Below, piece by piece: positions 4,682 through 63,566 of a stretch of DNA of 64,000 bases. This DNA comes from a virus (taxonomy: Duplodnaviria; Caudoviricetes): IMG/VR virus record IMGVR_UViG_3300035696_002894, positions 1,283-65,282 of that record; one strand, written 5' to 3'. The notes beneath the pieces are model-generated. The model was not told the DNA's origin, ran no database searches, and saw only the letters and a program-made list of their open reading frames with translations. Position numbers and translations under genes: made by a program. The number at the start of each line of letters is the position of its first letter. Position 1 is the first letter of the stretch.

Positions 4682-4986
4682 CGGGGATGTGCCGACAGAG
4701 GGAGCGACCAACAGGTGCGCTCACGATCGAACATGACCAGGACGACGCCGGCACGTGGGTAACGGCAGACGGCAACCTCGAGATGGCGAACGAGGGAGGC
4801 TACAACGGCTGCGGTATACGCATCCGCGTGCTGCTCGATTGGCTCCGCACGCACCGCCCAGACCTTCTCGACGGCACAGGCCCGATCGTCTTGCCGGGCT
4901 TCCGATGCAAGACGTGTGGTGCATTCACCGGGACAGAAAAGGAAGACCTCACCGAGTGCCGCTGTTGCTGCACTCCCAAACCTTGA
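4678..4986 (+). CDS. hypothetical protein with C-terminal Zn ribbon
   Basis: ATGA overlap with previous gene; CKTC...CRCC; stop TGA lies inside the palindrome at 4981. Confidence 0.45.
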   Translation: MTGMCRQRERPTGALTIEHDQDDAGTWVTADGNLEMANEGGYNGCGIRIRVLLDWLRTHRPDLLDGTGPIVLPGFRCKTCGAFTGTEKEDLTECRCCCTPKP

Positions 4987-5000
4987 GGTCGACCTCAAGG
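4981..5000. repeat. 20-bp palindrome CCTTGAGGTCGACCTCAAGG, perfect
   Basis: Between convergent genes; contains the plus-strand stop. Confidence 0.97.
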
Positions 5001-5001
5001 A

Positions 5002-5541
5002 TCAGAGCCTACCGATCTCGCGACTCACTTCCTCCCCGATGAACCGGGGAAACTGCGCAGACGCCTTCTCAAGCACGCCCAATCCAGGACGACCTTCCTT
5101 CTCGATCGTCTTCACGATCGCCCAAGCAATGCGCCGAGCCTCCGTCTCGGTCGCGCCGATGTGCCGGACCTTGCCGCTCTTGCTCGTCACGGTCCGTCCC
5201 CCGAGGCGCTTGCGCTTCACCCATTCCGCGAGCGCGTCGATGACCTTCCTGCCTGGATGCAGTCTTCCCGGCCTGATAGCCCACTCGATCATCGGCGCGT
5301 AAGGGGAGATGCTTTCGACGACCGCCGCACTCGGCCCGTCCCGCTTCGCACGCCAGCTAGCCCGGTAATGCCCCCGATCGACGGGCGGATGTTCAAGTCC
5401 GGGGATGATATCCGAGACGATGTGCTCGACCGCCCGATGCGCCGCAGACAGAAGTCCTCGAGATGCAGCTTCGCGCATCTCCTTGCCGACGAGCGTGAGC
5501 ATCTGCTGCGCTTCGTTGAGCTTCCATACCGTCTGCGCCAT
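5002..5541 (-). CDS. HK97 gp10-like neck / tail component
   Basis: PVDRGHYRASW and YAPMIEW motifs; start re-set to the ATG overlapping the upstream stop. Confidence 0.55.
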   Translation of the reverse strand: MAQTVWKLNEAQQMLTLVGKEMREAASRGLLSAAHRAVEHIVSDIIPGLEHPPVDRGHYRASWRAKRDGPSAAVVESISPYAPMIEWAIRPGRLHPGRKVIDALAEWVKRKRLGGRTVTSKSGKVRHIGATETEARRIAWAIVKTIEKEGRPGLGVLEKASAQFPRFIGEEVSREIGRL

Positions 5542-6119
5542 CAGCCATACGCGCCCCCGGGCGCGAACCGGCTCGGTCCCTCGACCGTGGAGTCTTCCGA
5601 GATCCGCTCCAAAACCATCGTGTAAGCGACCTTTCCTTCCTGATGCCAAACCTGCGATGCGAGCCTGTACTTCTGCCTGACCGGCAACGCGTCCCCCCGT
5701 CCGTCCTCGAAGACCTCGTAGAAAAAGCCCACGTTCGGAGGCAAAGGATCGAGCAGGACTGCCTCATGTCGCTCCGCGTTCGGGGGCACGACCCTGCCCC
5801 GCAGCTGCTCCTCCGTGTACCGAACCGAGACGCTCCGCAGGCGGATACTTCCCTCTGGCAGAATACCAGCCGAAAAGCTCTTGAGTGCGACCGCGTCGAG
5901 CCCCTCAACCCTGGGGGTAGGCAATACCTCCATCCGGGCAACCTCCCGCTCGTCCCCCTCACCACGAGCAGCACCGCTCCAAAGAGTCCAGACGAGGAAC
6001 ACCCGATGGCTCCGCAGCCCGGTCTTGACCGCAACTTGCCGCGCTCGGTCCACGACCGGCGCGATGCGGTTGAGAATGGTCCCCTTCGCTTCCCTCGGGC
6101 TGAGCGGACGGACCTTCAT
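5541..6119 (-). CDS. putative head closure / head-tail joining protein
   Basis: 192 aa, beta-rich, in the neck gene position. Confidence 0.45.
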   Translation of the reverse strand: MKVRPLSPREAKGTILNRIAPVVDRARQVAVKTGLRSHRVFLVWTLWSGAARGEGDEREVARMEVLPTPRVEGLDAVALKSFSAGILPEGSIRLRSVSVRYTEEQLRGRVVPPNAERHEAVLLDPLPPNVGFFYEVFEDGRGDALPVRQKYRLASQVWHQEGKVAYTMVLERISEDSTVEGPSRFAPGGAYG

Positions 6120-6144
6120 GCCCCGGAGGCTACCCGTCGCCGGG

Positions 6145-6164
6145 CCTTGAGGTCGACCTCAAGG
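6145..6164. repeat. 20-bp palindrome, perfect
   Basis: 12 nt upstream of TAGCCT. Confidence 0.97.
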
Positions 6165-6267
6165 CAACGTCCGGGTGCCCCTAGACGGGGTGGACTAGCG
6201 GGAAGGTCTCTTAGCCCCTCTAGTCCACCGATCCCCCCGCCAAGGACATCCTCGGGGCAGGACGGCG

Positions 6268-6609
6268 CTACTTCACCGAGCGCAGGCGAAGAATGAGCGC
6301 CGAGGGCGCCGTCACCACCATCGCGTTCGGCGCGGCGCCCGCATCCGAGGTCGCGGCGGAGCTCAGCGCGGTCGCGAGCTGCCCGGCGATGGTCACCGCG
6401 GTCCCGGCGTCCGGGAGTAGGCAGACGACGGCGATGCTCGCAGCGTTCGTGTTCCCGCTTGCGACCTGGGTCAGAACGCACGTCGCCGTGTTGATCCCCG
6501 CCTGCTCCGCCTCGCTGATGATGGTCTTCTTCTGCGCTGGCGTCAGAAAACAGCCGGCGAGCAGAAGGGCGAAGGCGAACGGACGGATGACGCTGAGCTT
6601 GCAGCGCAT
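6268..6609 (-). CDS. small lipoprotein
   Basis: Hydrophobic signal followed by lipobox-like LLAGC. Confidence 0.5.
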   Translation of the reverse strand: MRCKLSVIRPFAFALLLAGCFLTPAQKKTIISEAEQAGINTATCVLTQVASGNTNAASIAVVCLLPDAGTAVTIAGQLATALSSAATSDAGAAPNAMVVTAPSALILRLRSVK

Positions 6610-6725
6610 GATGAGATCCTCCTCGTAGGTTGAGAGGCGCAGGATGAGCTATCCTCGTGGAAGAAGAAAGCCCCCGCGCGCTGGTAACGCCGGGAGCCCG
6701 ACCGCGAACCTGAACGGAGGCTGCG

Positions 6726-7473
6726 ATGCGATTTAAGCTACTGGATCTCACAGGGCGTGTCTTTGGTAGCCTGACGGTTCTCGAACTCAGCGGACGCCGC
6801 AGGTATCCGAATCAAACCGTTCCAGTGTGGCGCTGTCGCTGCGTATGTGGCAACGAACGCAACGTCGAAAGCGGAAAGCTTCTAGCCAAGTCTTCACCGG
6901 TACTTTCATGCGGATGTAAGCGCGCAGTACCGCGCGGCGGCTGGTCTGCGATCAACCAAATCCACGGAGATAGCGGTACACCGGAGCATCGCGCATGGGC
7001 GTCAATGCGTACACGGTGCTTACGTTCAACGTATCGCTTCTTCAAGAACTACGGCGGACGCGGGATCCGTATCTGCGCAGCTTGGTCTTCATACGCGACC
7101 TTCCTCGCTGACATGGGCCGGCGCCCATCGCCGAAGCACTCACTCGACCGAAAAAAACAACGATGGACACTACTCATGCGGGAAGTGCCCGGAGTGCATC
7201 GCGAACGGTTGGTCGTCGAACTGTCGCTGGGTAACAATGACAGTTCAGCAGCGTAACAAGCGGTCGAACCGCGTACTTCTCTACCGCGGTGAACGAAAGA
7301 CACTCGCCGAGTGGTCCATTCAATACGGACTCTCATCCGCAACGCTAACGCGGCGGCTCGACCGTGAAGGTCTGTGCCTCGAAAAAGCACGCACGCGACC
7401 GCTCTTCCGAGTACTCAACCGTGAGAAACCGCGATGTTCACCCCACCCCCGCCGCCCCACTGCGACCACCTAG
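6726..7473 (+). pseudogene. HNH homing endonuclease split by a 1-nt frameshift in an A7 run (7151-7157)
   Basis: WRCRCVCG, HGDSGTPEHRAWASMRTRC, YGGRGIRIC, DMGRRPS..SLDR; removing one A gives KNNDGHYSCGKC...NCRWVT and joins ORF 7237-7473. Confidence 0.8.
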
Positions 7474-7825
7474 CGTCAAACGGATTGGGACCAGGAACAC
7501 CGAGGAGGTTGCACAATTCTCCTTGAAAATACTTGTAACGCTGTAGGATTTTTTCGAACTCGTCCTCGCGGAACTCGACCTCGTCTGCCTTCGTGAGCAC
7601 GAGCGCGTCCGCGTTCTCTTCGATCTGCATCTCGAGCCGGTCGAGCCTTCGGAGTGTCTGCCGACACCGATCCTCGGCACCAGGCGCGATGGCGTTCATC
7701 GCCCCCTCGAGCATGAACAAACTCTCCATCGCCGCGGGAACGCCAAGCACGAACGTTTGGATAGCGTTCGCGTTGGGGTAACCCGTGTGATGTTTGATGG
7801 AGACGCGCTCCTCGTCGGTCAACAC
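7415..7825 (-). CDS. putative head-tail connector / head completion protein
   Basis: 136 aa helical protein two genes downstream of the capsid gene; GTG start. Confidence 0.5.
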   Translation of the reverse strand: MLTDEERVSIKHHTGYPNANAIQTFVLGVPAAMESLFMLEGAMNAIAPGAEDRCRQTLRRLDRLEMQIEENADALVLTKADEVEFREDEFEKILQRYKYFQGELCNLLGVPGPNPFDARWSQWGGGGGVNIAVSHG

Positions 7826-7849
7826 GCGCTAGAGCATGCGCTAGCCGAG

Positions 7850-7866
7850 CCTTGAGGTCGACCTCA
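7850..7866. repeat. palindrome variant (right arm shortened)
   Basis: CCTTGAGGTCGACCTCA. Confidence 0.9.
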
Positions 7867-7962
7867 GCACCTAGGAAGACGCGTCCAGTACGCAAAAGAA
7901 CGGCGGCAACCTTCTGCGCAAAGTTGCCGCCGCAGCTGAGCGTCCGGGTTGGGGTGAAACGC

Positions 7963-8250
7963 TCAGGAGCCTACGACCTCATCGGTCCCGTGCCAGACGA
8001 AGTCCGTCGTCGGAAACTTCTGGTTGCACCGAGAGCAAACGAGGGTGCTGAGCACACCTGGTTGCCGCGCATGGAAGTCCGCAACGTCGCTTCGAAGGAT
8101 CGTGACCGGACAGTGCTTGCCGTTGACGACGTGCTCGACCGCATCCCGGTGCGGCCGCACGTAGCCTTTCGCAGACTCCGCGGCACTCGGTTTCGAAGGG
8201 GACAGAGCTGCTTTCACGGCACTATGCTCGTTCTCGGTGTGCTCAGTCAT
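7963..8250 (-). CDS. conserved phage hypothetical protein (Cys/His motif)
   Basis: YVRPHRD...HC...CSRC..KFP..DFVW..TDEVVGS pattern. Confidence 0.5.
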   Translation of the reverse strand: MTEHTENEHSAVKAALSPSKPSAAESAKGYVRPHRDAVEHVVNGKHCPVTILRSDVADFHARQPGVLSTLVCSRCNQKFPTTDFVWHGTDEVVGS

Positions 8251-8630
8251 TACATCATCACTCCAATCTGCTGCTCGTTCTCGCCGACCTCGACGAGCGT
8301 GAATCCTTGTCTACGTATGAACTCGATCGGAAAGTACCTCTCGTCGAGGAGCTTCCCCGGCACGAGGCGCGAATGCCGCCCCTGCTGGTCCACGTACTGC
8401 CTGCCGCCCGGCGGCAGGTTGTCCACCCGGAAGCGACGTACCTTCGGCGGCTCCACGAGCGATGCTGCCGAAGACGACCGCATCGCGCTCTGGACCGGCA
8501 TCCCCGGCTGCGGGATCGCCCCTTCTTGCACGATGTACTTGAGCGGGAGCCCTGCAGGGGTCACCGCCGCTGCCTCGTTCGGGAACACAGGCATCTCTTC
8601 GGGCATGTCTGGCATCTTCTGTCGACCCAT
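8250..8630 (-). CDS. hypothetical protein
   Basis: GGAGG RBS; coupled to the next gene. Confidence 0.5.
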   Translation of the reverse strand: MGRQKMPDMPEEMPVFPNEAAAVTPAGLPLKYIVQEGAIPQPGMPVQSAMRSSSAASLVEPPKVRRFRVDNLPPGGRQYVDQQGRHSRLVPGKLLDERYFPIEFIRRQGFTLVEVGENEQQIGVMM

Positions 8631-8662
8631 CGGTTCTTCCTCCGAGCGAGAGGATGCCCTAG

Positions 8663-8692
8663 CCGAGCCTTGAGGTCGACCTCAAGGCTCGG
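8663..8692. repeat. 20-bp palindrome (8668-8687) extended to 30 bp
   Basis: CCGAG and CTCGG flanks. Confidence 0.97.
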
Positions 8693-8709
8693 GGTGCTTC
8701 GGCTACGAC

Positions 8710-10107
8710 CTAGGCGCTCTCGATTACGACGGCGCGCTTGTACCGGGCCGGCGAGAGGGTCGCCGTGATGTCCGACGGGCACGCGAACGCTGTCGACGCG
8801 CTCCACGTGTGGGAGACAACGTCTTGCAGTCGGTCGATCGGGGAACGGATGACGAGCCGCACACCGTCGGTGCCAATCGCGAGCCCGTTGTTGACGATGG
8901 CGAACTCGCCCATCTTCCCAGTCACACCCGCCTCGCCGATGTATTGCGTCTCGTCGAAGCCGCGCTCGATGAGCGTTCCCTTGCCCGTGATGACGCAGCG
9001 ATTGATCGACACGCCGAGGTTGTTGACGACCTCGCCGCCGATGTCGAATGCGTACGTCGCACCTGCGTTGCCGGTCGACACCTGTCCAATCGTCGTTGCC
9101 GTTGTCGGCGAGTCGTTGTTCATCACGAACATGACACCGAGAACCGGGTTGACCCAGCCCTGCTTGTAATTCGAGTGGTCAGGCAACGCCGTGTTCAGGC
9201 GCTGCCATGCCGGGTCGGAGAAGATCTCCGCGTCCATCACGGGGGGAAGGTGTCCGTGGAACCACCCATCGTCGTGCGGCTGCACACTGTTGGTACGCAG
9301 CACCTGCACCGCGTTCTTGATGTCCTGGAGCGTCAGCGTATCTGCCGCCGTGATTGCATCGACACCGAGCCCACCGCCAGAGCGGATGACAAGCGGCGCG
9401 ACGGTCGAGAGCACCGGCGTACGCACAGGCACGATTTGGCCGATGGCTGCACCGAGATAGAGCGTTCCTGGGCTGTTCGGGTCTGCTGGGTTGTTCAGCT
9501 GCACGCCGACGACCGTGTTCGTCAGGTACGATCCGCCGAAGGGGATACGGATCGCGAGCGGGTTCGCGCTCGAAACCGGAACGGGACGCACGTTCGTAGC
9601 GGCGTTCACGACATCCGTGAACCCGTTGACGCTCGCAACCTGGATGACCGTGTCCGAGGATGCCGTGATAACGGTGCTCATCGTCTGTCCGCTGATGTAA
9701 CTCTGGAAGAGCACATTGCGGGGCACGCGGTTGAGCGTCATGCCGGCCTGGATGCCCTGCTGCTGAATATTCCGGCTGAACTGGTCCGCGTTCGACAGAA
9801 CGCTCGTCGGCATGTGGGTGTCCATCGTGTCGCCGTAGCGCTGCATGGTCACGACCCACTGCTCGTACGTCAGCGTCTTCGGCGTCGGGTCCTGACCAGA
9901 AACGAGCGGCACAATCGCGGGCTGAAGCAGCCCGGCACGGCTCATGATGATCTGGACACCGACCTGCGCGACCCACTCTTCCCAAAGCGCATCGGCGCGG
10001 TAGAGCATCTGCGGCACGAGTGCATCGTGGAACGCACGCACGAGAAGGTTGGTCTGGATCAGGTTGAGGATCGCAGGCGGGATACCTAGGACGATTCCTG
10101 CTGGCAT
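8710..10107 (-). CDS. major capsid protein (N4 gp56-like, HK97 fold, with insertion domain)
   Basis: 465 aa from ATG 10107; LTYEQWVVTMQRYGDTMDT, ITAADTLTLQDIKNAVQVLRTNSV; downstream of portal and scaffold. Confidence 0.75.
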   Translation of the reverse strand: MPAGIVLGIPPAILNLIQTNLLVRAFHDALVPQMLYRADALWEEWVAQVGVQIIMSRAGLLQPAIVPLVSGQDPTPKTLTYEQWVVTMQRYGDTMDTHMPTSVLSNADQFSRNIQQQGIQAGMTLNRVPRNVLFQSYISGQTMSTVITASSDTVIQVASVNGFTDVVNAATNVRPVPVSSANPLAIRIPFGGSYLTNTVVGVQLNNPADPNSPGTLYLGAAIGQIVPVRTPVLSTVAPLVIRSGGGLGVDAITAADTLTLQDIKNAVQVLRTNSVQPHDDGWFHGHLPPVMDAEIFSDPAWQRLNTALPDHSNYKQGWVNPVLGVMFVMNNDSPTTATTIGQVSTGNAGATYAFDIGGEVVNNLGVSINRCVITGKGTLIERGFDETQYIGEAGVTGKMGEFAIVNNGLAIGTDGVRLVIRSPIDRLQDVVSHTWSASTAFACPSDITATLSPARYKRAVVIESA

Positions 10108-13866: not shown

Positions 13867-13886
13867 CCTTGAGGTCGACCTCAAGG
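13867..13886. repeat. 20-bp palindrome, perfect
   Basis: Intergenic. Confidence 0.97.
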
Positions 13887-15977: not shown

Positions 15978-15990
15978 GATCGCGAGCTTA

Positions 15991-16010
15991 CCTTGAGGTC
16001 GACCTCAAGG
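15991..16010. repeat. 20-bp palindrome, perfect
   Basis: Abuts TAAGCT. Confidence 0.97.
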
Positions 16011-53962: not shown

Positions 53963-54217
53963 TCACGCATCATTCCGCGGCCCGCCCGGCCGGCCGATCG
54001 CAGCTCGCGGCGCCTTCCGGAGCACCGAATCATCTCGCAACCAGCGGAAAAGCGTGTCGCGCGAGATCCCTAGGATCGTCGCAGCACCGGCCCATCCCGC
54101 GTAGTCGCGCACGTGCCCTTCGGCGCGGCACATCGCATCCAAGATGATCCTACGCCAGCGCGCTGGCTCACGGTATCGCAATAGCCGCAACGCGGCCGCG
54201 CTCACCGACGCCTTCAC
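53963..54217 (-). CDS. small Fis-like HTH protein
   Basis: AATILGISRDTLFRWL. Confidence 0.6.
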   Translation of the reverse strand: MKASVSAAALRLLRYREPARWRRIILDAMCRAEGHVRDYAGWAGAATILGISRDTLFRWLRDDSVLRKAPRAAIGRPGGPRNDA

Positions 54218-54474
54218 TTAACACCTCCTCTGACAGGCCGAAAATCCCACGAGCGCCTACCCAGCCAGCCCGGATAGTGCCCACTCCTGCACTGAATCAG
54301 AGCAACGATCCCAAGCCGCCGAACGTATTTGCGCAATGTTCGCGGTGCGACGTGGAGCTTCCGCGCCGCGACCTCCGGCCAGCCATCCCCGGCATCGTAC
54401 GCCGCGAGAATTTTCTCGATCGCCTGCTCGGGAGCAGAGCGCACAAGTCGCAAAATCAGTCTCGTCATCGCCAT
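54214..54474 (-). CDS. small Fis-like HTH protein
   Basis: AARKLHVAPRTLRKYV. Confidence 0.6.
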   Translation of the reverse strand: MAMTRLILRLVRSAPEQAIEKILAAYDAGDGWPEVAARKLHVAPRTLRKYVRRLGIVALIQCRSGHYPGWLGRRSWDFRPVRGGVK

Positions 54475-54524
54475 CTTCTCGATCCTATAGATGCCGCACT
54501 CCGTGCATCCTCGGCAAGCGCCCC

Positions 54525-54548
54525 GATCTTGAGGTCGACCTCAAGATC
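54525..54548. repeat. symmetric palindrome variant, 24 bp
   Basis: GATCTTGAGGTCGACCTCAAGATC; inside the HTH gene cluster. Confidence 0.95.
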
Positions 54549-54549
54549 T

Positions 54550-54786
54550 TCACCGAGCCTTCTCGGGGTCCGCAAAGCGCGTGCAAAACGCACTCTCTGC
54601 CGCGCGCAACTCATCTCGAAGCCCGAGCTGCGCGACCACCTGCACGAACTTGTCCACCCCCACACGTAGCGCGCGCGCCGTCGCTGCGTGCGAACACGCA
54701 TTCAGCGCGAAGAGCTCACGGACGATCCTGCGCGCCGATTCCGGATCGATGTACGCAAGATCGCCGAGGTACAGATCGCGAATCAT
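54550..54786 (-). CDS. small HTH-like protein
   Basis: ATARALRVGVDKF. Confidence 0.45.
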   Translation of the reverse strand: MIRDLYLGDLAYIDPESARRIVRELFALNACSHAATARALRVGVDKFVQVVAQLGLRDELRAAESAFCTRFADPEKAR

Positions 54787-56225: not shown

Positions 56226-58766
56226 TCAACCATGATGCCGCTTCGACTTCTTCCCCCCGCCACTGAAACTATCCATCGCATCCGGTCCTTCCCGCTCACT
56301 GGGCCGATCGTAAGGCACGCTCGTTCCTCGACCGAACCACGCAAGATCTGGGTTCCATTCCAGCTCGACGCTCAAAGGCCAGGGTGCGTAGCGCTGCTTG
56401 AGCACGTCGACGACGATCATGTCGTCCGGCACGTTCTTCCACTGCGCAGGCCGATAGACACCGAGGATAGTGTCGGCAACATCAACCCACGCACTCGTCC
56501 CCTTGATGCCCTCGCGCGTCGGACGCTTGTCCGCGCGTACCTCGACATCCTTCAGCCTCTGCTGCTGCAACAAGATGCCATGGCACTTCGTCCCCTCGCA
56601 GATCGCTTGCTGCCGCCATAGTGCCTGCTGAATCTCGCTCGGCGAATCATCGACGAGGCATCGGTCCCAAAGGTCTGCGATGAACACGTCAGCACCAGAG
56701 TCTTCAATCAGGTGCTGGACGATGTCGAGGTTCTCGCCGTTCGTCTCCTTGCCAGAATGCTGAAAGGGGTTCGGGATGTACCTCACCACCTTGTCGATCT
56801 CTTTCGCGCGCGCCTCGACCGCACAAATCATCTCCTCCGACGCGCCTATCTGAAGTTGCCTACGGCTGACACACACGTTCTCTTCCGCAAGGCTCATCAC
56901 GGCCATCAGCTCGCTCGTCTCCTCGGCGCTCATCTCCCAGGCGCCGTAGAGCACACGCCGCCTCTGTCGCGCCTGTCCGAGCGCGATGCGCGCCGCGATG
57001 GTGCTGTTATGCGTAGGAATCATCGATCGCCCCGCTAAAAACAAGTGCGAAGGCGCATCCACAGCAATACACCTCACAGGAACAGATGGCACAGGGCGAA
57101 CCGCCTCGATATACCGGCGCTTGTGCACACCGCGACGCTTACCCGTGCGCAACAAACATGCTTTGCGCTGCAACCTGAACAGCGGAAAGTCCGCCGTAAA
57201 GTGCACGTTCCACGCATCCCCAATCACGCGTCCCCCGATCTTCGCTACTTTGTGCGAAGCGACACTTTTCACACCAAGTGTAGCCAAAAGCTCAAGAAAC
57301 CCATCCCGAAGTACAGGGCTCGTCGTGCACCAGGACGCTTTGCCAAGACAACGATCCACCGTACCATCCATGTCCATCAGCCCCTGTAGCAGCGCGCGCC
57401 GCTGCACCTCCGATGCGCGCAAATATATCACAGGAATGTGTTTCCGATTCAGCACCCCCAGCCGCTGCAAATCACCCTTCAGTCCACTTACACACCAACG
57501 CCCCTTCGTACTCTTCTGCTCCCACACGCTATATCCTAGGGCACGTATCTCCTCCACAATCTGCACATCGAACTTCGTATAATAGCCCGCCGAGCTAGTG
57601 TCGTCGCCCAACCACACACCTAATAAGTACGGATGCACGGGTAAATGCACATCCGGAAGTATTAGCGGCGCAGCTACCGCTACAGCATGGTTCACCTCCT
57701 CACGACTTGCCGTGCAGAAACGAAGTGTTTTGGCAATTTCTATGGTCGTTCTTACCTTTCCCGATACATCACTTCGCGTGTCGGCATGGTGTAACAACAA
57801 CGCATCCGAGACATGCGGCCTACGCACTATGGCCCCGCGCCTACGTCGTCGTTGTTCTCGAAACTCAGGCGTCCGCAAACGAGACAACGCCCGTTCTCGC
57901 GCACTCATCGTCAGCCATAAATGTTCCGCGTCCGCAACGATCCGCGAACCATCCGAAAAGAGCAGCTCGTAACATTCGTGCTCCAACATCACGGATGAGC
58001 ACCACACGACTCGCGTAATTGCACCACTCTCTGCAAAAACTAGATCGCCCGGCACAATAGCACCCATCGTTGTCCACCCACCCGGGGTAGGAATTGGCGT
58101 ATCCAACGCCAAAGCCTTCCCGCCGCCCGATGTCCCAGTGATTACCGTGATCTTCCCCGGCTTTGCTGCCGGGATCAGCCGCGGCTCTCCAGTCTCATCC
58201 TGGTACGTATCGAGCCCGGCGATCCCGTAGGGATAAATGCCGTGCCCCGCTGCACGTGCACGAAGATCTACGCCGAGCTTCGTCGAAACCTCGCTCGGCG
58301 AAAGAATCCTCGCTCGCTCACGCCAGACGCCGAACGTATCCCCAACTGCGCGAGCAAGCCCACGCACCTTCGCCGGCTCCGAGAGCGGGTCAGCAAGTGC
58401 CTCGAGCAGCGTCGTAATGGGCCCGCGTACGGCGTCTGCGCGAAGAGCATCCCACCGCACGCCTTCGACGTAGTGCGAGAGATCTGGCGGAACCTCGGGG
58501 CGCGACGACGCGAGCTGCGAGAGATACTCGATATCCAGATCTGGAAACAGCCGCTTCGCAGCGGCCGGGTCGTACGCGACGCCTCGACGTTCAAGTTCCG
58601 CAAGCGCTACGACCGCTGCGCGATGCTCTGGAATCTGCCAGCGCTCTGGCGGAAGCACGCGCAAGAGTCGTCGTCGCTGCTCGCTTGAGACGAGCAACGC
58701 GGCAAGCACAACCTGCTCGGTGTGCTCGTCGATCCGCACCGTCCGGCTCGGCGCCTGACCGGGCAC
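56226..58766 (-). CDS. dnaB: DnaB-like replicative helicase containing an intein
   Basis: Spliced Walker A GTSGGGK|ST, WEMS, IADL, QQQR, ADTILGVYR; start approximate. Confidence 0.85.
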   Translation of the reverse strand: MPGQAPSRTVRIDEHTEQVVLAALLVSSEQRRRLLRVLPPERWQIPEHRAAVVALAELERRGVAYDPAAAKRLFPDLDIEYLSQLASSRPEVPPDLSHYVEGVRWDALRADAVRGPITTLLEALADPLSEPAKVRGLARAVGDTFGVWRERARILSPSEVSTKLGVDLRARAAGHGIYPYGIAGLDTYQDETGEPRLIPAAKPGKITVITGTSGGGKALALDTPIPTPGGWTTMGAIVPGDLVFAESGAITRVVWCSSVMLEHECYELLFSDGSRIVADAEHLWLTMSARERALSRLRTPEFREQRRRRRGAIVRRPHVSDALLLHHADTRSDVSGKVRTTIEIAKTLRFCTASREEVNHAVAVAAPLILPDVHLPVHPYLLGVWLGDDTSSAGYYTKFDVQIVEEIRALGYSVWEQKSTKGRWCVSGLKGDLQRLGVLNRKHIPVIYLRASEVQRRALLQGLMDMDGTVDRCLGKASWCTTSPVLRDGFLELLATLGVKSVASHKVAKIGGRVIGDAWNVHFTADFPLFRLQRKACLLRTGKRRGVHKRRYIEAVRPVPSVPVRCIAVDAPSHLFLAGRSMIPTHNSTIAARIALGQARQRRRVLYGAWEMSAEETSELMAVMSLAEENVCVSRRQLQIGASEEMICAVEARAKEIDKVVRYIPNPFQHSGKETNGENLDIVQHLIEDSGADVFIADLWDRCLVDDSPSEIQQALWRQQAICEGTKCHGILLQQQRLKDVEVRADKRPTREGIKGTSAWVDVADTILGVYRPAQWKNVPDDMIVVDVLKQRYAPWPLSVELEWNPDLAWFGRGTSVPYDRPSEREGPDAMDSFSGGGKKSKRHHG
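57006..58115 (-). mobile_element. Ala1 (class 3-type) intein with LAGLIDADG endonuclease (370 aa)
   Basis: ALALDTPIPTPGGW; DAEHLW; YLLGVWLGD; LLQGLMDMDG; VRCIAVD...IPTHN|S. Confidence 0.9.
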
Positions 58767-58770: not shown

Positions 58771-58794
58771 GACCTTGAGGTCGACCTCAAGGTC
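58771..58794. repeat. 20-bp palindrome (58773-58792) extended to 24 bp
   Basis: Contains a stop codon; upstream of dnaB. Confidence 0.97.
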
Positions 58795-59311
58795 CACCCG
58801 TTGACGCACTACCTCCTCCGTTTGCTCTCCACCGCACGACCTGCCGCGCGCTGAACTGCAGCCGCCAGCCGAGCGGATTGATGACCCGCCCGTTGTTGCG
58901 CCTCCACTTCGTGCTTCGCCGCTCCTCGCCCCACGTCCAGCGAAGAAGCGGCACCGCCGCCTCCGCCTTCCCTTCGAACTCGCGCTTGACCAGTGCGTCC
59001 GCCGCGAACATCGCAAGCTTCCAATCCTGCGCGGTCATCGCGGGCGCGACCCCGTAAGTCTGCTCATGGCACCACGCCCAAAGCGCGACAAGATGTAGCG
59101 CGCCCGCCCCCGCGTAGTTGTCCGCGAGGCGCATCTGCACAACCTCGCCGCACACCTCCTCAATCCGACCTTTCGACGGCGCGCGTGATCTGCCGCGCTT
59201 GCGCGTCGAGAGCTTCTCCGAGAGCGCAACCGACGCGTTCGCGATCGCGATCACGCTAAATCTTCCCGCTGCAGACTCCAGCCCTAACATCTGTCGCCCC
59301 ATAGCGCGCAC
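58787..59311 (-). CDS. hypothetical protein
   Basis: Upstream of dnaB; stop inside a palindrome. Confidence 0.5.
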   Translation of the reverse strand: MRAMGRQMLGLESAAGRFSVIAIANASVALSEKLSTRKRGRSRAPSKGRIEEVCGEVVQMRLADNYAGAGALHLVALWAWCHEQTYGVAPAMTAQDWKLAMFAADALVKREFEGKAEAAVPLLRWTWGEERRSTKWRRNNGRVINPLGWRLQFSARQVVRWRANGGGSASTGGP

Positions 59312-59321: not shown

Positions 59322-59561
59322 TCAGCGGGACTTCATCGCTGCACTCGACTCCTGCAGCGCTACCTTGAACGCCGCGATCTTCGTCGCATACGACTTGCGA
59401 GCAAACGCCTCGCACGCGGCGTACGCACGCGCCATCGCCTGCTCAGGCGTCTCGCCGTCTTTCACTACGGTTGTCATCTCGAACGGCCCGATGTCGAAGT
59501 TGTTGTACCGCTCGGGGGAAACCTTCATCAGACCCCACGTCACCGTCACCGTATCAACCAT
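59322..59561 (-). CDS. hypothetical protein
   Basis: GGAG RBS before MVDTVTV. Confidence 0.45.
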   Translation of the reverse strand: MVDTVTVTWGLMKVSPERYNNFDIGPFEMTTVVKDGETPEQAMARAYAACEAFARKSYATKIAAFKVALQESSAAMKSR

Positions 59562-61555
59562 CGCGTTTCTCCTTGGTAGCTGCTGCATGATGCCGCACTC
59601 GGAACCGCAACCGACTTCGCGCGCCTGCGCTCCTTTCGCGCGTCGATCCACTCGCCATCCTCGCCTTGAACGAACACCGGCCGCCCATCATCGAAGAGCG
59701 CAGGCCAGTCCTTCGCGCGACAAGCGTCCAGCAGATAGTAGAGACGCGCCGGTCCTTCTCCCCCCGCGATGCGACAAATGCGCCCAGCGACCTGTCCGAA
59801 AAGTTGCCGGTTGCTTGCGACAGGCATCGCCGCGATGCCAACTCCAACACGAGGAAGATCAACACCGGTCCCCACAGCCTGCACCGTTCCTACGGCGACC
59901 CGCAAAGAACCACCGAGAAGACCTTCCACCGCCTGATCAAGCGCAGCCTTGTGCTCAGCACCTCCAACCATCAGCCCCGCAGCAATGCCGCCCCTCGCCA
60001 GCTTCCCGACGAGCCTTCTGCAATGCTCCACCCGCAAGCTGAAGACCAAGATCTGCTCACCACGCGCTCGCTCCTGCTCGACCACGCGCAGCACATGCTC
60101 GTCTCGTCCATCCGCCTGCGCCATCGCGTCGAGCATCTCGCGATACTGATCACCACTGCTCCCCACCATCGAATCCACAGGGGACTTCCAGCCTGTGGGG
60201 ATGACCCGAATCTCGACATCCCGCACACGCTTCCTCGCAACGAGCTCCTTGCGATTGATGCTCAGCGCGAGATCGCCGAACAGGTCGTACGCGAGAAACT
60301 CCTTCCTGTCCGCACGCCGCTCATCGGCAGAAACACCGACCCGATAGCGCGCCGCGAACGGATCGATGCTCGCGATGAATGTCGGTGCGCTGAAGCGCTG
60401 CAATTCATCGGCGATGACTACGCCGAACGCGTCGAACACAGGATCGCCAGCCGGAAACCTCGCAAGCGCCTGCTGCATCGCGACCGTGATCGCACCCACC
60501 GTCTTCTTGCCTCCACGGATCTGACCCACGAAAGCACGCTTTACACCGAGCCCATCCCTGATGCGCTCCATCCACTGCGAGAACAGAGCACCGGTCCAGA
60601 CGACCACGATCGTCGGCTTGCGCACCCGCGCGATCAGCGCGAGGCATATCTCCGTTTTTCCGGAGTTGTGTACCGCAACACCGTTCGCAATGAACGCCGC
60701 TGCGCGCTCGACTTCTAAGTCATACGTTGCTTGCCGACCTGCGTACTCGACGCTTACTAGCTGCCGCGGTGCAAGCATCGACTTCCGACCCCTGGTACCC
60801 ATCACACCGTCAAACAACACAGCAGCACCGACCGAAAGTGCATCCAGCCGCATCCAGCCGTGCGACGTCAGCAAACGGTGATCACACGTCAGCGTCAGAA
60901 CACAACCACCCGCGAACTTTGCACGATAAACATCGCGCACGCCGCTACTGCGCGCTGCAAGAACACGCGCAAGATGAACAGTCCCATCTTCGAACGGCGC
61001 ACGTACGAACGTAGTGATGTCACTTCTCCACCGACGACCTGCGCAAAGACCGCCATTGAATGCGTACACCACATGGTCAAGGCGCATTTTCGCGCCTTTT
61101 CCAGCGCGATTGATCGTCACTATCGTATCGCCAACCAAACACCCTGTAGGCGCGCGCAGATAACACGTCTGCCGAGCAACCACGCGCTCGAGCGCCTCCG
61201 CCTGGTCCTCGAAAAGCGTCCTGCGAAGCTCGGGCCATTGGAAACTGGACGCTGGCACGTATGCGCCGTCACTCCGCGCGTCCTTGACCCGAAGCTCAGC
61301 ACCACTCGAGACGAGAAGCGCGCGCACTCGCGACATTCCTCCCCTCGGAAGCGATAGCCATGCGCCCTCGTCACGCCATGTCTTGATGAGCCTCGACTCC
61401 TTGCGATGGTCGAACCGGATACCGAGATGCCGCATCTTCTCGTGCTGCGGGTTCTTGTGTTCGAAGAGCGCGCGTAGCGCATCGAAATACTCCATCGAGA
61501 GGTCCGCGCGAAAGACGCGCACACGCGAATCGACCAAAACACGAACGATGCTCAC
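59546..61555 (-). CDS. SF2 (DEAD/DEXH) helicase containing a mini-intein
   Basis: Spliced APTG|SGKT, IADE, VSA, GTGVDLP, QVAGRICR. Confidence 0.88.
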   Translation of the reverse strand: MSIVRVLVDSRVRVFRADLSMEYFDALRALFEHKNPQHEKMRHLGIRFDHRKESRLIKTWRDEGAWLSLPRGGMSRVRALLVSSGAELRVKDARSDGAYVPASSFQWPELRRTLFEDQAEALERVVARQTCYLRAPTGCLVGDTIVTINRAGKGAKMRLDHVVYAFNGGLCAGRRWRSDITTFVRAPFEDGTVHLARVLAARSSGVRDVYRAKFAGGCVLTLTCDHRLLTSHGWMRLDALSVGAAVLFDGVMGTRGRKSMLAPRQLVSVEYAGRQATYDLEVERAAAFIANGVAVHNSGKTEICLALIARVRKPTIVVVWTGALFSQWMERIRDGLGVKRAFVGQIRGGKKTVGAITVAMQQALARFPAGDPVFDAFGVVIADELQRFSAPTFIASIDPFAARYRVGVSADERRADRKEFLAYDLFGDLALSINRKELVARKRVRDVEIRVIPTGWKSPVDSMVGSSGDQYREMLDAMAQADGRDEHVLRVVEQERARGEQILVFSLRVEHCRRLVGKLARGGIAAGLMVGGAEHKAALDQAVEGLLGGSLRVAVGTVQAVGTGVDLPRVGVGIAAMPVASNRQLFGQVAGRICRIAGGEGPARLYYLLDACRAKDWPALFDDGRPVFVQGEDGEWIDARKERRRAKSVAVPSAASCSSYQGETRWLIR
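60665..61141 (-). mobile_element. mini-intein (159 aa, no endonuclease)
   Basis: CLVGDTIV; TCDHRLLTSHGW; TYDLEV...FIANGVAVHN|S. Confidence 0.9.
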
Positions 61556-61591
61556 CGCGCGCATGATGCCGCGTACGACACAAAGAACACC

Positions 61592-62088: not shown

Positions 62089-62349
62089 TCACGGAGACAG
62101 ACTCGCGAGGCGACCGACCTCTACAGACAAACGCGCGACGGCCGCGGCGGATACCTTCCCGCCCCCCGAAAGCTTCGTCAGCAGAGTCTCGCTCGTCCGT
62201 AACTCACGCAGCACACGCATCTTGCCTAACCGCACGCACTCTCGCGCGATCGCCTTCTCGAGCTCCGCAGGTACGCTCACCTGCGCGCTGACGAAAAAAC
62301 GCGGACTCTTCAGCCCATCTGCCGTCCTGCGTACCCGCGTGTCCGCCAT
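62089..62349 (-). CDS. hypothetical protein
   Basis: GGAG RBS before MADTRVRR. Confidence 0.45.
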   Translation of the reverse strand: MADTRVRRTADGLKSPRFFVSAQVSVPAELEKAIARECVRLGKMRVLRELRTSETLLTKLSGGGKVSAAAVARLSVEVGRLASLSP

Positions 62350-62395
62350 TGCTCCATCTCCGCCATCACATACACAGATGATGCCGCCATGCGGC

Positions 62396-62614
62396 CTACC
62401 CCGACCACGACCCCGACCGCGACCTCGACCGCGACCACGACCACGACCCCGACCGCGACCACGACCTCGACCGCGACCACGACCACGACCCCGACCCCGA
62501 CCACGACCACGACCGCGACCCCGACCCCAACCTCGACCGCGACCACGACCGCGACCACGACCCCGACCACGACCCCGCGCGGTCAAAACCGCCGCGCAGG
62601 ATTGCAGCATTCAC
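62396..62614 (-). CDS. Ser/Arg/Trp/Gly dipeptide-repeat micro-protein, copy 1
   Basis: GTGA coupling; VNAAILRGGFD followed by (W/R/G)S repeats. Confidence 0.55.
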   Translation of the reverse strand: MNAAILRGGFDRAGSWSGSWSRSWSRSRLGSGSRSWSWSGSGSWSWSRSRSWSRSGSWSWSRSRSRSGSWSG

Positions 62615-62961
62615 TTCGCAATCCTCGGCAACGAATGGGCCCAGGGCGCACTATCCACCAACGCCCCACGCCAAATAACCGCGCGCACCGGGTACGGCTC
62701 AAACTCCCGTATCAACCCCTTCGACAAAAACTCCCCATAGCGCTCAGTATCGGCAACCCATCCTGCCTCTTCAAGCAAGAAGAAGTCCGGTCCGATCGCA
62801 ACCACACGTCCAATGTTGATCATCGTGACGCTGCGAAATACCCACGCCTCGCCGACCTTGATCGGCAGCTCTATCGATACCTGCGTCCCGGCAACGTTAC
62901 CCACCAAAGCTGCGATTTCGCGAATCTGCTTCACGCTTAACTCTTCGATGTTCAGTTCCAT
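62611..62961 (-). CDS. conserved phage protein (DUF6948-like by recollection)
   Basis: FRSVT..IGRVV...LEEAGWVADTERY..FL..G...E.EP....RGALVD. Confidence 0.55.
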   Translation of the reverse strand: MELNIEELSVKQIREIAALVGNVAGTQVSIELPIKVGEAWVFRSVTMINIGRVVAIGPDFFLLEEAGWVADTERYGEFLSKGLIREFEPYPVRAVIWRGALVDSAPWAHSLPRIAK

Positions 62962-63015
62962 GCTCCATCTCCGCCATCTCCGCCATCACATACACAGATG
63001 ATGCCGCCATGCGGC

Positions 63016-63327
63016 CTACCCCGACCACGACCCCAACCGCGACCTCGACCCCGACCACGACCACGACCCCGACCGCGACCACGACCGCGACCTCGACCGC
63101 GACCACGACCACGACCCCGACCGCGACCACGACCCCGACCGCGACCACGACCACGACCCCGACCCCGACCACGACCACGACCGCGACCCCGACCGCGACC
63201 CCAACCTCGACCGCGACCACGACCCCGACCACGACCCCGACCTCGACCCCGACCTCGACCGCGACCGCGACCCCGACCGCGACCAACAAGTCACATCAAA
63301 ACCGCCGCGCAGGATTGCAGCATTCAC
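63016..63327 (-). CDS. Ser/Arg/Trp/Gly dipeptide-repeat micro-protein, copy 2
   Basis: Same leader VNAAILRGGFD and same end WSG*; GGAG RBS; start approximate. Confidence 0.55.
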   Translation of the reverse strand: MNAAILRGGFDVTCWSRSGSRSRSRSGSRSGSWSGSWSRSRLGSRSGSRSWSWSGSGSWSWSRSGSWSRSGSWSWSRSRSRSWSRSGSWSWSGSRSRLGSWSG

Positions 63328-63351
63328 TTCTCCTCCGTCATGCGTAGACAA

Positions 63352-63381
63352 TGCTTCCTTGAGGTTGACCTCAAGGAAGCA
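63352..63381. repeat. palindrome variant, 30 bp with a central mismatch (GTTGAC)
   Basis: TGCTTCCTTGAGGTTGACCTCAAGGAAGCA. Confidence 0.95.
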
Positions 63382-63546
63382 ACACTCTCATCGCAGCGCT
63401 CCGCAACCGCCGGGCAGCCTCCGCAATCTCTTCTCATCCGGCAGATACCAGCGCGAACGCCGCGCGCACGATCTCGACCATCTGGGCCTTTACCTTCTGC
63501 TGCTCCGTCGATGCCTTGTTCATGCTCCCCATGATGCCGCGCCGCT

Positions 63547-63566
63547 CCTTGAGGTCGACCTCAAGG
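63547..63566. repeat. 20-bp palindrome, perfect
   Basis: 10 nt from CATCAT. Confidence 0.97.

Follow-up and report, generated by a model that had tools for sequence, protein, structure and literature searches.

What does one short palindrome do at the gene junctions of a phage genome? The window, that is the whole 64,000-nucleotide stretch of DNA analysed here, was scanned in full for the 20-mer CCTTGAGGTCGACCTCAAGG, whose perfect two-fold symmetry includes the central TCGA. The scan returned the 17 exact copies and nine variants (1-3 mismatches) counted in the first-pass annotation, each exact copy where it had been placed and a single variant shifted, to 34641 instead of 34642. One extra copy of the 14-bp core alone (TGAGGTCGACCTCA) lies at 3509-3528, within a gene, and another perfect copy sits outside the window, 0.9 kb to its left, at 341-360 of the same 65,282-bp IMG/VR record. 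The number of copies expected by chance is zero (none in 100 dinucleotide-preserving shuffles).

Distribution and authenticity of the palindrome

At about one copy per 2.4 kb, palindromes occur in the replication module (PolB, DnaB, primase, UvrD-like helicase, RecA and SbcC-like genes) and in the structural module (terminase, portal and major head) alike, as had been claimed. The statement that they lie almost always between genes also holds: about 22 copies either lie in intergenic DNA or share nothing more than a stop codon with a gene, copy 3509 is clearly intragenic, and copies 33287, 18069 and 63547 are within, or in the final codons of, uncertain ORF calls.

That the repeat might be an artefact of assembly or of adaptors, or else a REP element abundant in the host, is a practically negligible explanation, for which we found no supporting point. 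Indeed, the same phage was assembled independently in two other samples (ENA assemblies L064 and L065; 99.96% and 100% identity to the window over 5.2 and 2.2 kb, copy 54527 included), and relatives carry co-varying versions at orthologous junctions, which rules out the artefact. As far as collections reach, an 18-mer of the palindrome has 38 matches in 596 Gb of prokaryote genomes, each of them a single-copy chance match, and none in other IMG/VR contigs, which rules out a host REP.

The palindrome as part of a boundary cassette

Nearly all genes are encoded on the minus strand, and on that strand the palindrome adjoins the preceding stop codon or provides it. For about 30 of 49 copies, the distance from stop to palindrome falls between -6 and +4 nt; the palindrome's own TGA is the stop in 13 copies, and the stop lies 0-4 nt upstream in about 17 others. 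A -10-like hexamer follows the palindrome in 17 of the 27 copies (15 within 0-12 nt, two at 39 nt), placed 7 nt ahead of a leaderless ATG/GTG or a GGAGG leader and with no regular -35, and 10/27 copies are promoter-less. The spacing between palindrome and hexamer is variable, centre-to-hexamer distances clustering at 13, 15-17 and 20-22 nt. Copies are present at 30% of gene junctions. We read the palindrome as the upstream half of a stop-palindrome-promoter-start boundary cassette, and it marks the boundaries of about 25 short predicted transcription units. The core of the earlier proposal, a phage-wide control or organisation system, holds in this form and as a family trait of related phages. 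The sites are listed below (-10, -10-like hexamer; SD, Shine-Dalgarno).

Palindromes (no strand assigned)
63547-63566, perfect; minus-strand -10 CATCAT 63531-63536, leaderless ATG 63521-63523
63357-63376, variant; sense-strand centre TCAA, pairing extended to a 13-bp stem, no promoter recognised
58773-58792, perfect; own TGA is the stop of gene 58787-59254, DnaB GTG 6 nt downstream, no promoter
54527-54546, symmetric variant TCTTGAGG..CCTCAAGA, separating the first small HTH gene from the second; -10 TAGGAT 54482-54487, 39 nt downstream, then 7 nt and ATG 54472-54474
51970-51989, perfect; 3 nt past the UvrD-like helicase stop, no promoter recognised
48739-48758, perfect; gives the stop of methyltransferase gene 48753-49610; promoter GGCATCCT 39 nt downstream (hexamer 48694-48699), ahead of PolB
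46254-46273, perfect; gives the PolB stop; -10 CATCAT 46245-46250, leaderless ATG 46235-46237
44918-44937, perfect; 1 nt past a stop; -10 CATCGT 44909-44914, then SD leader
41179-41198, perfect; between Metallophos (SbcD-like) gene 41203-41925 and gene 40785-41162; -10 CATCAT 41170-41175, ATG 41160-41162
38827-38846, variant, sense CCTCGAGG..CCTCAAGG, C.A mismatch in sense RNA; abuts the SbcC-like stop, no promoter
35098-35117, variant, outermost pair broken; methyltransferase gene 35112-37415 takes its stop from it, and an SD-led GTG follows 17 nt downstream
34641-34660, variant at two outer positions; -10 CATGAT 34625-34630, ATG 34615-34617
33287-33306, perfect; close to the 3' end of ORF 33210-33713; promoter-less, and L043 has the orthologous copy
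30334-30353, perfect; upstream of terminase, position conserved in 5/5 lineages; -10 CATCCT 30322-30327, 7 nt, GGAGGAA leader
28382-28401, symmetric variant TCTT..AAGA; 1 nt past the terminase stop; -10 TAGCCT 28366-28371, ATG 28356-28358
27835-27854, variant, stop-side arm degenerate; -10 TAGTCT 27817-27822, ATG 27807-27809
26571-26590, variant, C.A mismatch in sense RNA; -10 TAGCCT 26555-26560, ATG 26545-26547
25577-25596, perfect; canonical hairpin+U terminator about 65 nt later (25510-25475), arrangement kept in L043
23737-23756, perfect; gives a stop; -10 TAGCTT 23719-23724, ATG 23709-23711
18069-18088, perfect; upstream of the portal gene; -10 TAGGGT 18052-18057
15991-16010, perfect; -10 TAAGCT immediately adjoining (15985-15990), leaderless GTG 15975-15977
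13867-13886, perfect; SD-led ATG 13 nt downstream, no promoter
8668-8687, perfect, extended to 30 bp; after the major head gene, 13-bp stem, -27 kcal/mol; -10 CATCCT 8651-8656
7850-7869, variant, stop-side arm degenerate (5-bp stem); 30 nt downstream of canonical terminator 7933-7900; -10 CATGCT 7833-7838, GTG 7823-7825
6145-6164, perfect; -10 TAGCCT 6127-6132, ATG 6117-6119
4981-5000, perfect; convergent ends of minus gene 5002-5541 and a plus ORF that terminates on the palindrome's TGA (4984-4986), no promoter
3509-3528, 14-bp core only; inside gene 3057-3866
Other features
7900-7933, minus, canonical intrinsic terminator outside the repeat family; 14-pair stem + TCTTTT
25475-25510, minus, canonical intrinsic terminator; 15-pair stem + TTCTTTT, conserved in L043
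53963-54786, minus, three tandem small Fis-like HTH genes (54550-54786, 54214-54474, 53963-54217); candidate binders
50698-51357, minus, sigma-70 region-2 protein; possible reader of one of two -10 classes

Lineage-specific arms in related phages

The palindrome-promoter boundary cassette belongs to a whole family of uncultured phages. Its layout is common to four related metagenomic lineages (five with the window phage); three other relatives have no palindrome copies in the DNA available. The centre GGTCGACC is invariant in 69 copies from the five lineages. The arms are symmetric and lineage-specific (CTTGAGG, AAGTGAGG, AAGTCAGG or GCTCCGG), their positions being uniform inside one lineage and changing symmetrically from lineage to lineage. 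Orthologous promoter-less sites, such as 13867 in the window and 37122 in G1, also bear each lineage's own arms, which would be difficult to account for if each lineage lacked a reader of its own. Since the copies are identical within a genome and all shift together between lineages, a sequence-specific factor must read them; since the motif is not a repeat in the prokaryote genomes searched, this reader is probably phage-encoded.

A putative phage regulator of the palindrome duplex

The explanation that we favour, tentatively, is that a two-fold symmetric (dimeric) phage-encoded regulator binds the palindrome duplex as both operator and roadblock. Next to a promoter, such a dimeric DNA-binding protein would cover the -35/spacer region and act as an operator; at every boundary, it would block RNA polymerase coming from the preceding unit, in the manner of a stoperator. 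A single protein could then silence or insulate all units together. The sequences themselves show the copies and where they lie, the promoter grammar, the co-variation by lineage and an exchange of cassettes between sites. Four elements of this model are ones that we infer: the protein nature of the reader, DNA and not RNA as its target, its repressive action and the identity of its gene.

Several observations are consistent with such a regulator. The symmetry extends through TCGA around an invariant centre, the lineage-specific arms resemble the positions of stoperators that track immunity, and these arms are found at promoter-less orthologous sites as well. The closeness of palindrome and -10 in the 15 copies mentioned above, and their overlap in L048, would suit an operator, as would the tolerance of two in-frame copies in the SbcC gene of G1. 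By our own count, about 22 arm deviations are uncompensated and two are compensated; they fall mostly in the arm overlapping the upstream coding end, while the other arm keeps the consensus. The lack of compensation suggests that each arm is kept for its sequence and not for pairing. Finally, no U-tract follows the palindrome at any copy, and strong canonical terminators stand 30-65 nt from palindromes 7850 and 25577; the one at 7900-7933 indicates that ordinary terminators are in use next to the palindrome.

Other features sit less well with an operator and roadblock, namely the anchoring to the upstream stop codon with a variable distance to the -10, stems that extend past the 20-mer more than expected (see below), and a centre that is the most conserved part. 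Indeed, in HTH-dimer operators the outer half-sites are usually more conserved than the centre. The only candidate binders are the three Fis-like HTH genes, which score below Pfam thresholds and whose orthologues could not be tied to arm sequence. We found no integrase or classical repressor in the window, so that a lysogeny-type global repressor would have no visible context. As for the promoters, it is possible that the sigma-70 region-2 protein reads one of the two -10 classes.

Alternative explanations

The main rival, possible but in our view rather doubtful, is an RNA hairpin attenuator akin to PeSLs (promoter-early stem-loops), the composite terminator/promoter cassettes of T4-type phages (PMC2839356, PMC4122927), whose stem-loops overlap promoter boxes and terminate transcription by experiment (PMC2839356). 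The transcribed palindrome would fold into an 8-13-bp hairpin at the end of a unit, attenuating read-through or protecting the upstream mRNA 3' end; the centre TCGACC would also serve as a -35-like box for the next promoter, and gene conversion among cassettes would maintain copy identity. The order stop, stem-loop, -10, start is that of PeSLs, and both the stop-codon anchoring and the promoter-less copies, such as 4981 between convergent gene ends, suit a hairpin. In the window, pairing continues past the fixed 20-mer with bases that vary: there are 24 additional pairs where 8.95 would be expected from shuffled flanks (p = 5e-5), and the longest stem is the one behind the major head gene. These extensions suggest that a hairpin has been selected for. 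Across lineages, 16 of the 36 copies linked to a promoter have TCGACC 16-18 nt ahead of the -10, and at 7850, preceded by a canonical terminator, decay is confined to the stop-side arm. Gene conversion is supported by the 28 nt of spacer and promoter after copy 6145, which are identical before an unrelated gene in L043/L044, and by the in-frame palindrome patches in the SbcC gene of G1; yet promoter-less 20-bp copies are perfect despite little homology. Against the hairpin stand the missing U-tract, when canonical hairpin+U terminators are used elsewhere, and the pattern of change: a structure-only element should compensate across 27 old copies, whereas here the sequence is fixed and broken arms stay uncompensated. 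Moreover, stems reach only 5-6 bp in about 40% of the L043 and L051 copies, three window variants have C.A mismatches in sense RNA, and a self-complementary 4-nt loop is not expected of RNA.

It is improbable that the hairpin is instead read by a phage RNA-binding or processing protein that would cut or stabilise polycistronic transcripts at boundaries, as Cas6 does on CRISPR repeats, lambda N on boxB or RNase III at T7 sites. An invariant loop with invariant loop-proximal pairs above a lineage-variable lower stem, a within-genome identity that calls for a sequence-specific reader, and the position at gene 3' ends would all agree with it. However, the broken arms speak against pairing here too, we found no RNA-binding or nuclease candidate and no Rfam family matching the hairpin, and an 8-bp stem is too short for RNase III.

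We consider it equally improbable that the palindrome is mainly a joint for recombination or a cassette that spreads selfishly, with a regulatory appearance that is secondary. On whether breakpoints of gene gain and loss fall on the motif, a check proposed at first pass, the answer is divided: when the window is compared with L043, several of the differences in gene content are [genes + palindrome] blocks that palindromes delimit, but other indels lie away from them, and the association is weak because insertions must fall between genes and 30% of junctions have a copy. Two lineages have an identical 46-nt palindrome and promoter ahead of genes that are unrelated, one copy has an HNH-like cassette inserted directly next to it, and PeSLs mediate comparable shuffling (PMC2839356, PMC4122927). 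Nonetheless, there is no transposase or RAYT-type gene among the proteins scanned, a proposed splitting of SbcD by a cassette found no support, and the copies on both sides of terminase, at core junctions, are conserved in 5/5 lineages, which fits function better than parasitism.

Finally, parS-like sites for ParB loading or partition, suggested by the size of the palindrome and by a ParB_N-domain gene, are very improbable, since the best matches of its product are ParB-like modules at the N-terminus of phage DNA methyltransferases, the gene adjoins a methyltransferase gene, L049 has both genes and no palindrome in 21.7 kb, the centre is unlike the parS consensus (as already noted at first pass), and 27 evenly spread sites tied to stops and promoters differ from parS clusters.

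Comparison with known phage repeats

The palindrome had been considered not to be a described element. This stands for its sequence but not for its kind: dispersed intergenic palindromes and stem-loop/promoter cassettes have been described (PMC4351075, PMC7302621, PMC2839356, PMC4122927). Repeats of this kind are known in other phages and are unusually regular here, the closest apparent analogues being T4-type PeSLs, Cluster O/EG palindromes and stoperators.

PeSLs are likewise repeated intergenic cassettes leading from the upstream stop through a promoter-overlapping stem-loop to the next start, and they flank gene indels and are apparently exchanged between sites. They differ by stems made of variable G/C tracts instead of a single fixed perfect palindrome, by promoters with full sigma-70 consensus, AT-rich UP region and SD, and by clustering in hyperplastic regions rather than in core replication and structural modules; their termination was demonstrated, while any termination at our palindrome is putative.

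Stoperator arrays of Cluster A mycobacteriophages (L5 gp71), Rhodococcus CA and Streptomyces R4 phages (PMC9283540, PMC6550527, PMC5559632, PMC5721134, PMC10276819) also comprise 20-30 near-identical sites in short intergenic gaps over the whole genome, at promoters and away from them, and combine invariant positions with group-differing ones that track immune specificity (PMC5559632). They are, however, asymmetric 13-bp sites whose orientation matters, and the temperate-phage repressor that binds them is a monomer, in contrast to the 20-bp perfect palindrome of a window with no such repressor or integrase found.

Cluster O mycobacteriophages have more than 30 copies of the 17-bp palindrome TGTTCGGNNNCCGAACA (PMC4351075), and Cluster EG Microbacterium phages have 18-bp repeats, GATCAACCNNGGTTGATC, 14-22 bp upstream of start codons (PMC7302621). 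As here, many copies of one short inverted repeat occupy mostly short intergenic gaps of a high-GC genome and are conserved among relatives although flanks diverge. The sequence is another one, our palindrome has no variable central spacer and is most conserved at its centre, and Cluster O copies fall within genes in about a third of cases, while nearly all of ours abut stop codons; the leaderless-promoter link and lineage-specific arms are undescribed for those phages.

In the Streptomyces phage phiC31, Ingham and colleagues reportedly described in 1994 CIR operators with a 17-bp inverted repeat, present in many highly conserved intergenic copies bound by the phage repressor; their sequence and phage lineage are different. 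T7 has RNase III processing hairpins at gene junctions next to phage promoters, which are long, imperfect, downstream of the promoter and non-identical in sequence, in contrast to the 8-bp stem here, but the gene-junction hairpins near promoters are similar and the terminase of our phage is distantly T7/SIO1-like.

A genome-wide palindrome array

The first-pass annotation had listed 26 copies of the 20-mer CCTTGAGGTCGACCTCAAGG, and we recovered them all: 17 are exact and the rest carry at most three mismatches, at the positions it had listed except that one variant starts at 34641, not 34642. A dinucleotide-preserving shuffled sequence contained zero copies. A scan for the 12-bp core added a degenerate, intragenic copy at 3509-3528, and one further perfect palindrome lies left of the window, at 341-360 of the 65,282-bp IMG/VR record, which is labelled a provirus and is about 70% complete. 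The window spans positions 1283-65282 of that record.

The G+C content is 62% across the window, and gene calling by codon usage placed almost all genes on the minus strand, the exceptions being a short operon on the plus strand (about 3900-4986) and, left of the window, a plus-strand zinc-ribbon gene with an ORF behind it. Pfam and PHROG scans revealed the gene content of a tailed phage. The replication module comprises an intein-bearing DnaB, a primase, a UvrD-like helicase, a sigma-70 region-2 protein, a family B polymerase and RecA, together with a Metallophos and SbcC-like pair and two DNA methyltransferases, one of them preceded by a ParB_N module. The packaging and structural module holds the large terminase, portal, a MuF-like protein and the major head protein. 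The roughly 70 proteins and ORFs scanned included no member of an integrase or repressor family, and searches of the window returned no Rfam family and no tRNA. A 20-kb Megablast query had no nucleotide match in 50,697 phage records, the terminase is only about 22% identical to T7/SIO1-like terminases, and a host search via RecA neighbours returned viral clusters alone.

The phage is also present in two other ENA assemblies, with identities of 99.96% and 100%, copy 54527 included, which leads us to reject an assembly artefact. An abundant host REP, the alternative that the annotation had set against its own proposals, was not borne out either, since the 18-bp core has only 38 single-copy matches in 596 Gb of prokaryote genomes, about the chance level, and no genome has two; taken jointly, artefact and REP/RAYT-type host repeat are of negligible probability. 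The same core had no match in other IMG/VR contigs, and the scan of window proteins turned up no Y1 transposase. We also rejected restriction sites as an explanation, GTCGAC (SalI) and TCGA both occurring at the expected frequency outside the palindromes.

Lineage-specific versions in relatives

Metagenomic relatives were reached through terminase homologues (47-71% identity) and their contigs were compared with the window. The palindrome was found in four lineages of relatives.

Table. Palindrome versions in contigs of metagenomic relatives (contig; terminase identity; element; copies)
L043/L044; 71%; the window's 18-mer; about 11 copies in 20 kb
L048, L067 (one sample); 67%; GCTCCGGTCGACCGGAGC; 7 copies in 11 kb and 4 in 4.7 kb
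G1/G2 (L045-47, L052-53); 55%; GAAAGTGAGGTCGACCTCACTTTC; 17 copies in 43 kb and 15 in 41 kb
L051; 49%; AAGTCAGGTCGACCTGACTT; 7 copies in 10 kb
L049, L050; 47-49%; no element in about 21 kb each; 0 copies
L066; not applicable; none at the junction occupied in the window and L067; 0 copies

An alignment of 69 copies shows an unvarying centre, GGTCGACC. Another five base pairs differ between lineages, both sides changing together (140 double-change cells vs 71 after shuffling, with none of 500 shuffles as high); the version of the L048/L067 lineage, for instance, is CTCCGGTCGACCGGAG. Orthologous promoter-less sites bear the arms of their own lineage (window 13867 vs G1 37122), the promoter grammar is identical in every lineage, and the terminase gene is flanked by palindromes in all five lineages. 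The array is a real, family-wide feature.

Two other repeats or insertions were seen in the palindrome-free contigs. L049 carries an IS605-type TnpA/TnpB insertion at 7128-8772, and the pentapeptide-repeat gene of L050 (3700-4000) has an array of 15-bp tandem repeats that at first resembled a dispersed repeat.

Anatomy of the cassette

Once aligned on the minus strand, all copies show one fixed order: stop codon, palindrome, then promoter where present. The upstream stop lies 0-4 nt before the palindrome or is the palindrome's own TGA (positions 4-6); of 49 copies drawn from five lineages, 13 show a stop-to-palindrome distance of -6 and about 17 one of 0 to 4. Downstream, 15 of the 27 window copies have a -10-like hexamer 0-12 nt away, and two more have one at 39 nt. 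Indeed, the strict promoter pattern stands after 12/27 palindromes vs 1.8% of random positions (p = 2e-14). The hexamer lies 6-7 nt ahead of a leaderless ATG or GTG without Shine-Dalgarno (SD) sequence, or 7 nt ahead of a GGAGGAA leader, and falls into two classes: gcGGCATCAT, CATCCT or CATGAT, found largely in the replication half, and GGGTAGCCT, TAGCTT or TAAGCT, found largely in the structural half.

Examples of promoters
63005, 62385, 61570, 59594, 56239, 48701, 33216, 32243, minus strand: GGCAT-type promoters
23172, 3866, minus strand: TAGC-type promoters

Neither class is accompanied by a regular -35, and consensus sigma-70 promoters are not above their shuffled frequency in the window. 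The two may represent temporal classes, with the host sigma and the phage's own sigma-like protein (50698-51357) as their readers. Between this gene and the helicase gene lies a KTSC-domain protein (51385-51936; Pfam E = 2e-21).

Palindrome and promoter are separable elements. About ten promoters with this grammar stand without a palindrome, and ten window palindromes have no recognisable promoter; among the latter, copies 58773, 35098 and 13867 are directly followed by an SD-led start, and 4981 sits between convergent gene ends. None of the copies is followed by a T-run. The predicted hairpins (-13 to -27 kcal/mol) do not qualify as intrinsic terminators, as they have no U-tract, and the same scanner detects real hairpin-plus-T sites elsewhere, two of which neighbour palindromes.

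Canonical terminators
7933-7900, minus strand: strong terminator, 30 nt upstream of palindrome 7850
25510-25475, minus strand: strong terminator, about 65 nt downstream of palindrome 25577, an arrangement conserved in a relative

Duplex-DNA operator or RNA hairpin

We lean, tentatively, towards a palindrome that is recognised as duplex DNA by a dimeric phage regulator and would serve as operator and roadblock. Three observations argue for duplex recognition. First, the two-fold symmetry continues without a break across the central TCGA, where an RNA loop needs no self-complementarity. Second, departures from the consensus fall mainly in the arm that lies over the upstream coding end, and the opposite arm stays consensus instead of compensating (by our count, about 22 uncompensated changes vs 2 compensated). 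Third, the copies are uniform within each genome, old orthologous promoter-less ones included, and a few symmetric positions differ between lineages. The specificity groups of stoperators show the same pattern of variation (PMC5559632, PMC6550527).

The main rival, which we hold possible although less probable, is an RNA hairpin acting as attenuator within a cassette resembling the promoter-early stem-loops (PeSLs), the composite terminator/promoter cassettes of T4-type phages. It is supported by the anchoring of the palindrome, which is on the stop codon and not on the -10: the spacing between its centre and the hexamer falls into clusters of 13, 15-17 and 20-22 nt, and it differs between orthologous promoters. 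Pairing also runs past the fixed 20-mer with varying bases, with 24 extra pairs in the window vs 8.95 in flank-shuffled controls (p = 5e-5); 12 of 20 copies gain one pair or more (p = 0.011). In two copies the palindrome reaches 30 bp, and one of these, after the major head gene, has a predicted fold of -27 kcal/mol. Part of this extended pairing could arise without selection, by template-switch mutation at palindromes. The ten copies that control no promoter also point to a hairpin, but the roadblock model explains them equally well. The uncompensated arm changes count against a hairpin; in about 40% of the copies in the L043 and L051 contigs the stem is left at only 5-6 bp. A hairpin read by a protein appears quite unlikely.

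The varied spacing also bears on two promoter-related roles. An activator site of fixed geometry is unlikely, since orthologous promoters of different lineages differ in their -10 spacing. Among 36 promoter-linked copies, 16 place the central TCGACC (4/6 matches to TTGACA) 16-18 nt ahead of the -10; the idea that it serves as a general -35 box was dropped, since it fits the 20-22-nt class and not those at 13 or 15-17 nt. Functions may partly overlap at the element. At copy 7850, which lies downstream of a canonical terminator, only the stop-side arm (the one overlapping the upstream gene end) is lost.

Candidate binding proteins

Three tandem small proteins encoded after the primase gene have Fis-like helix-turn-helix (HTH) signatures, below Pfam thresholds.

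Small HTH genes
54550-54786: first gene
54214-54474: second gene
53963-54217: third gene

A symmetric variant of the palindrome lies between the first and second of them. The trio is syntenic in relatives, L066 and L067 included, with too few homologues to tie the recognition helix to the arms; two IMG/VR fragments of the G1 lineage have no HTH orthologues because they do not contain the early region. The basic recognition helix of the second protein reads PRTLRKYVRR in the window vs RDSLHKWNRR in the CCGG-type lineage, a difference that proves nothing given an overall identity of 48%.

Other candidates fared less well. The ParB_N protein matches modules linked to methyltransferases and is most readily understood as the N-terminal part of a phage methyltransferase that has been split, and L049 carries ParB_N without any palindrome; the parS/ParB-type loading site proposed by the first-pass annotation was therefore rejected as highly improbable. 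A Bac_DnaA_C protein (L043, L045) was dropped as binder, as the window lacks a homologue of the L043 gene. The window gene at 25984-26547 (187 aa) is homologous to another L043 gene, not DnaA_C, and has a phosphatase-like appearance.

Possible mobility and exchange

The cassette may be exchanged between phages independently of its genes. Downstream of palindrome 6145, a 28-nt stretch (spacer, -10 and ATG) recurs unchanged after a palindrome in L043/L044 (window 6117-6164 vs L043 17994-18041 vs L044 15855-15882), the identical cassette amounting to 46 nt. The genes behind it are unrelated (BLASTP E = 2.1), the terminases of the two phages are only 71% identical, and the window orthologue of the L043/L044 downstream gene has a different spacer. 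Whether breakpoints of gene gain and loss fall on the motif, as had been suggested, received a mixed answer: several differences in gene content between the window and L043 are palindrome-bounded blocks of genes plus palindrome, and other differences are not. In the G1 lineage, the SbcC-like gene contains two in-frame palindromes (L058 1717-1740 and 3058-3081, encoding GEVDLT and FEVDLT) that replace similar ancestral codons with no indel, which may reflect gene conversion in short patches or else selection for internal sites.

In a broader reading, unlikely in our view, the cassette is a self-homogenising punctuation unit (stop, insulator, promoter and start in about 45 nt) that would propagate through gene conversion, including in-frame copies within coding sequence, and co-evolve with a dedicated phage reader of the hairpin or palindrome. 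It would be a phage-internal counterpart of REP/RAYT or of CRISPR-repeat/Cas6, setting the transcript architecture of the whole genome. Recombination or a selfish element as the main role is improbable: we consider exchange a by-product of the repeats and not their purpose. The apparent cassette exchange in this family resembles the gene shuffling of T4-type phages, which proceeds by recombination between PeSLs (PMC2839356, PMC4122927). Gene blocks may thus bring their own expression signals when moving between phages.

Comparison with known systems

The element is a transcription-unit boundary cassette of a known kind, which includes PeSLs, the Cluster O/EG repeats and stoperators; the CIRs of phiC31 are another instance. 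Like PeSLs, it combines a stem-loop and a promoter in one short intergenic unit running from upstream stop to downstream start, but PeSLs use a sigma-70 consensus -35/-10 and an AT-rich upstream region whereas the window cassettes use the CATCAT and TAGCCT classes. With Cluster O/EG repeats it shares a single short inverted repeat in 8 to >30 copies, conserved among related phages, and differs in sequence (TGTTCGGNNNCCGAACA, GATCAACCNNGGTTGATC) and phage cluster. Cluster A-type stoperators also occur in many copies in short intergenic gaps genome-wide. Unlike this perfect 20-bp palindrome, they are 13 bp long, asymmetric and oriented with transcription, and they are bound by the immunity repressor of temperate phages, while our scan of the window, from a record about 70% complete and labelled provirus, found no repressor or integrase. 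We count the cassette as a new form because of its regularity, perfect symmetry, supply of the stop codon, leaderless promoter partner and lineage-specific variants.

Dispersed palindromes are known, and unexplained, from several actinophage clusters, and this family is a much cleaner case: copies are strictly placed (stop codon, palindrome, -10, leaderless start), and the natural specificity variants of four related lineages, together with palindrome-free relatives, are built-in controls. If a reader protein is found, the system would provide compact orthogonal insulator/operator parts for high-GC hosts, and a model for the joint change in specificity of about 25 sites and their reader. A hairpin acting by itself would instead be relevant to the disputed question of termination without a U-tract in high-GC bacteria.

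Individual genes and loci

Several loci next to palindromes or promoters were examined individually.

Loci
Record 381-1467, into window 1-184, plus strand: block with GGCATCAT promoter, 64-aa zinc-ribbon gene and HNH-endonuclease-like ORF
3891-4986, plus strand: operon with GGCATCCT promoter at 3891, ending on the TGA inside palindrome 4981
40785-41925: Metallophos (SbcD-like) ORF of 240 aa, then palindrome and promoter, then a 125-aa ORF conserved in L043

On one side of the zinc-ribbon block is the stop of gene 186-623 (minus strand), on the other the palindrome at 341-360 of the record; the block looks like a mobile insertion beside the cassette, and its HNH-like call comes from inspection by eye, Pfam having given nothing. 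The promoter at 3891 is divergent from the leaderless TAGCGT promoter of gene 3057-3866. None of the ORFs of this operon has a Pfam hit, so that the "Myb-like" gene reported at 4145 found no backing. The same holds for an SbcD split by the cassette: the upstream ORF is a Metallophos nuclease, and the 125-aa ORF has no fused homologue, no PDB sequence match and, with a mediocre model (pLDDT 72), no fold match.

Intein signatures are present in DnaB (56226-58766, LAGLIDADG) and in the ResIII/helicase gene 59546-61564. Finally, the same 42-nt promoter context (…GGCATCATctgtgtATG…) occurs at 62385 and 63005, 620 nt apart, pointing to small genes that have been duplicated locally towards the right end.
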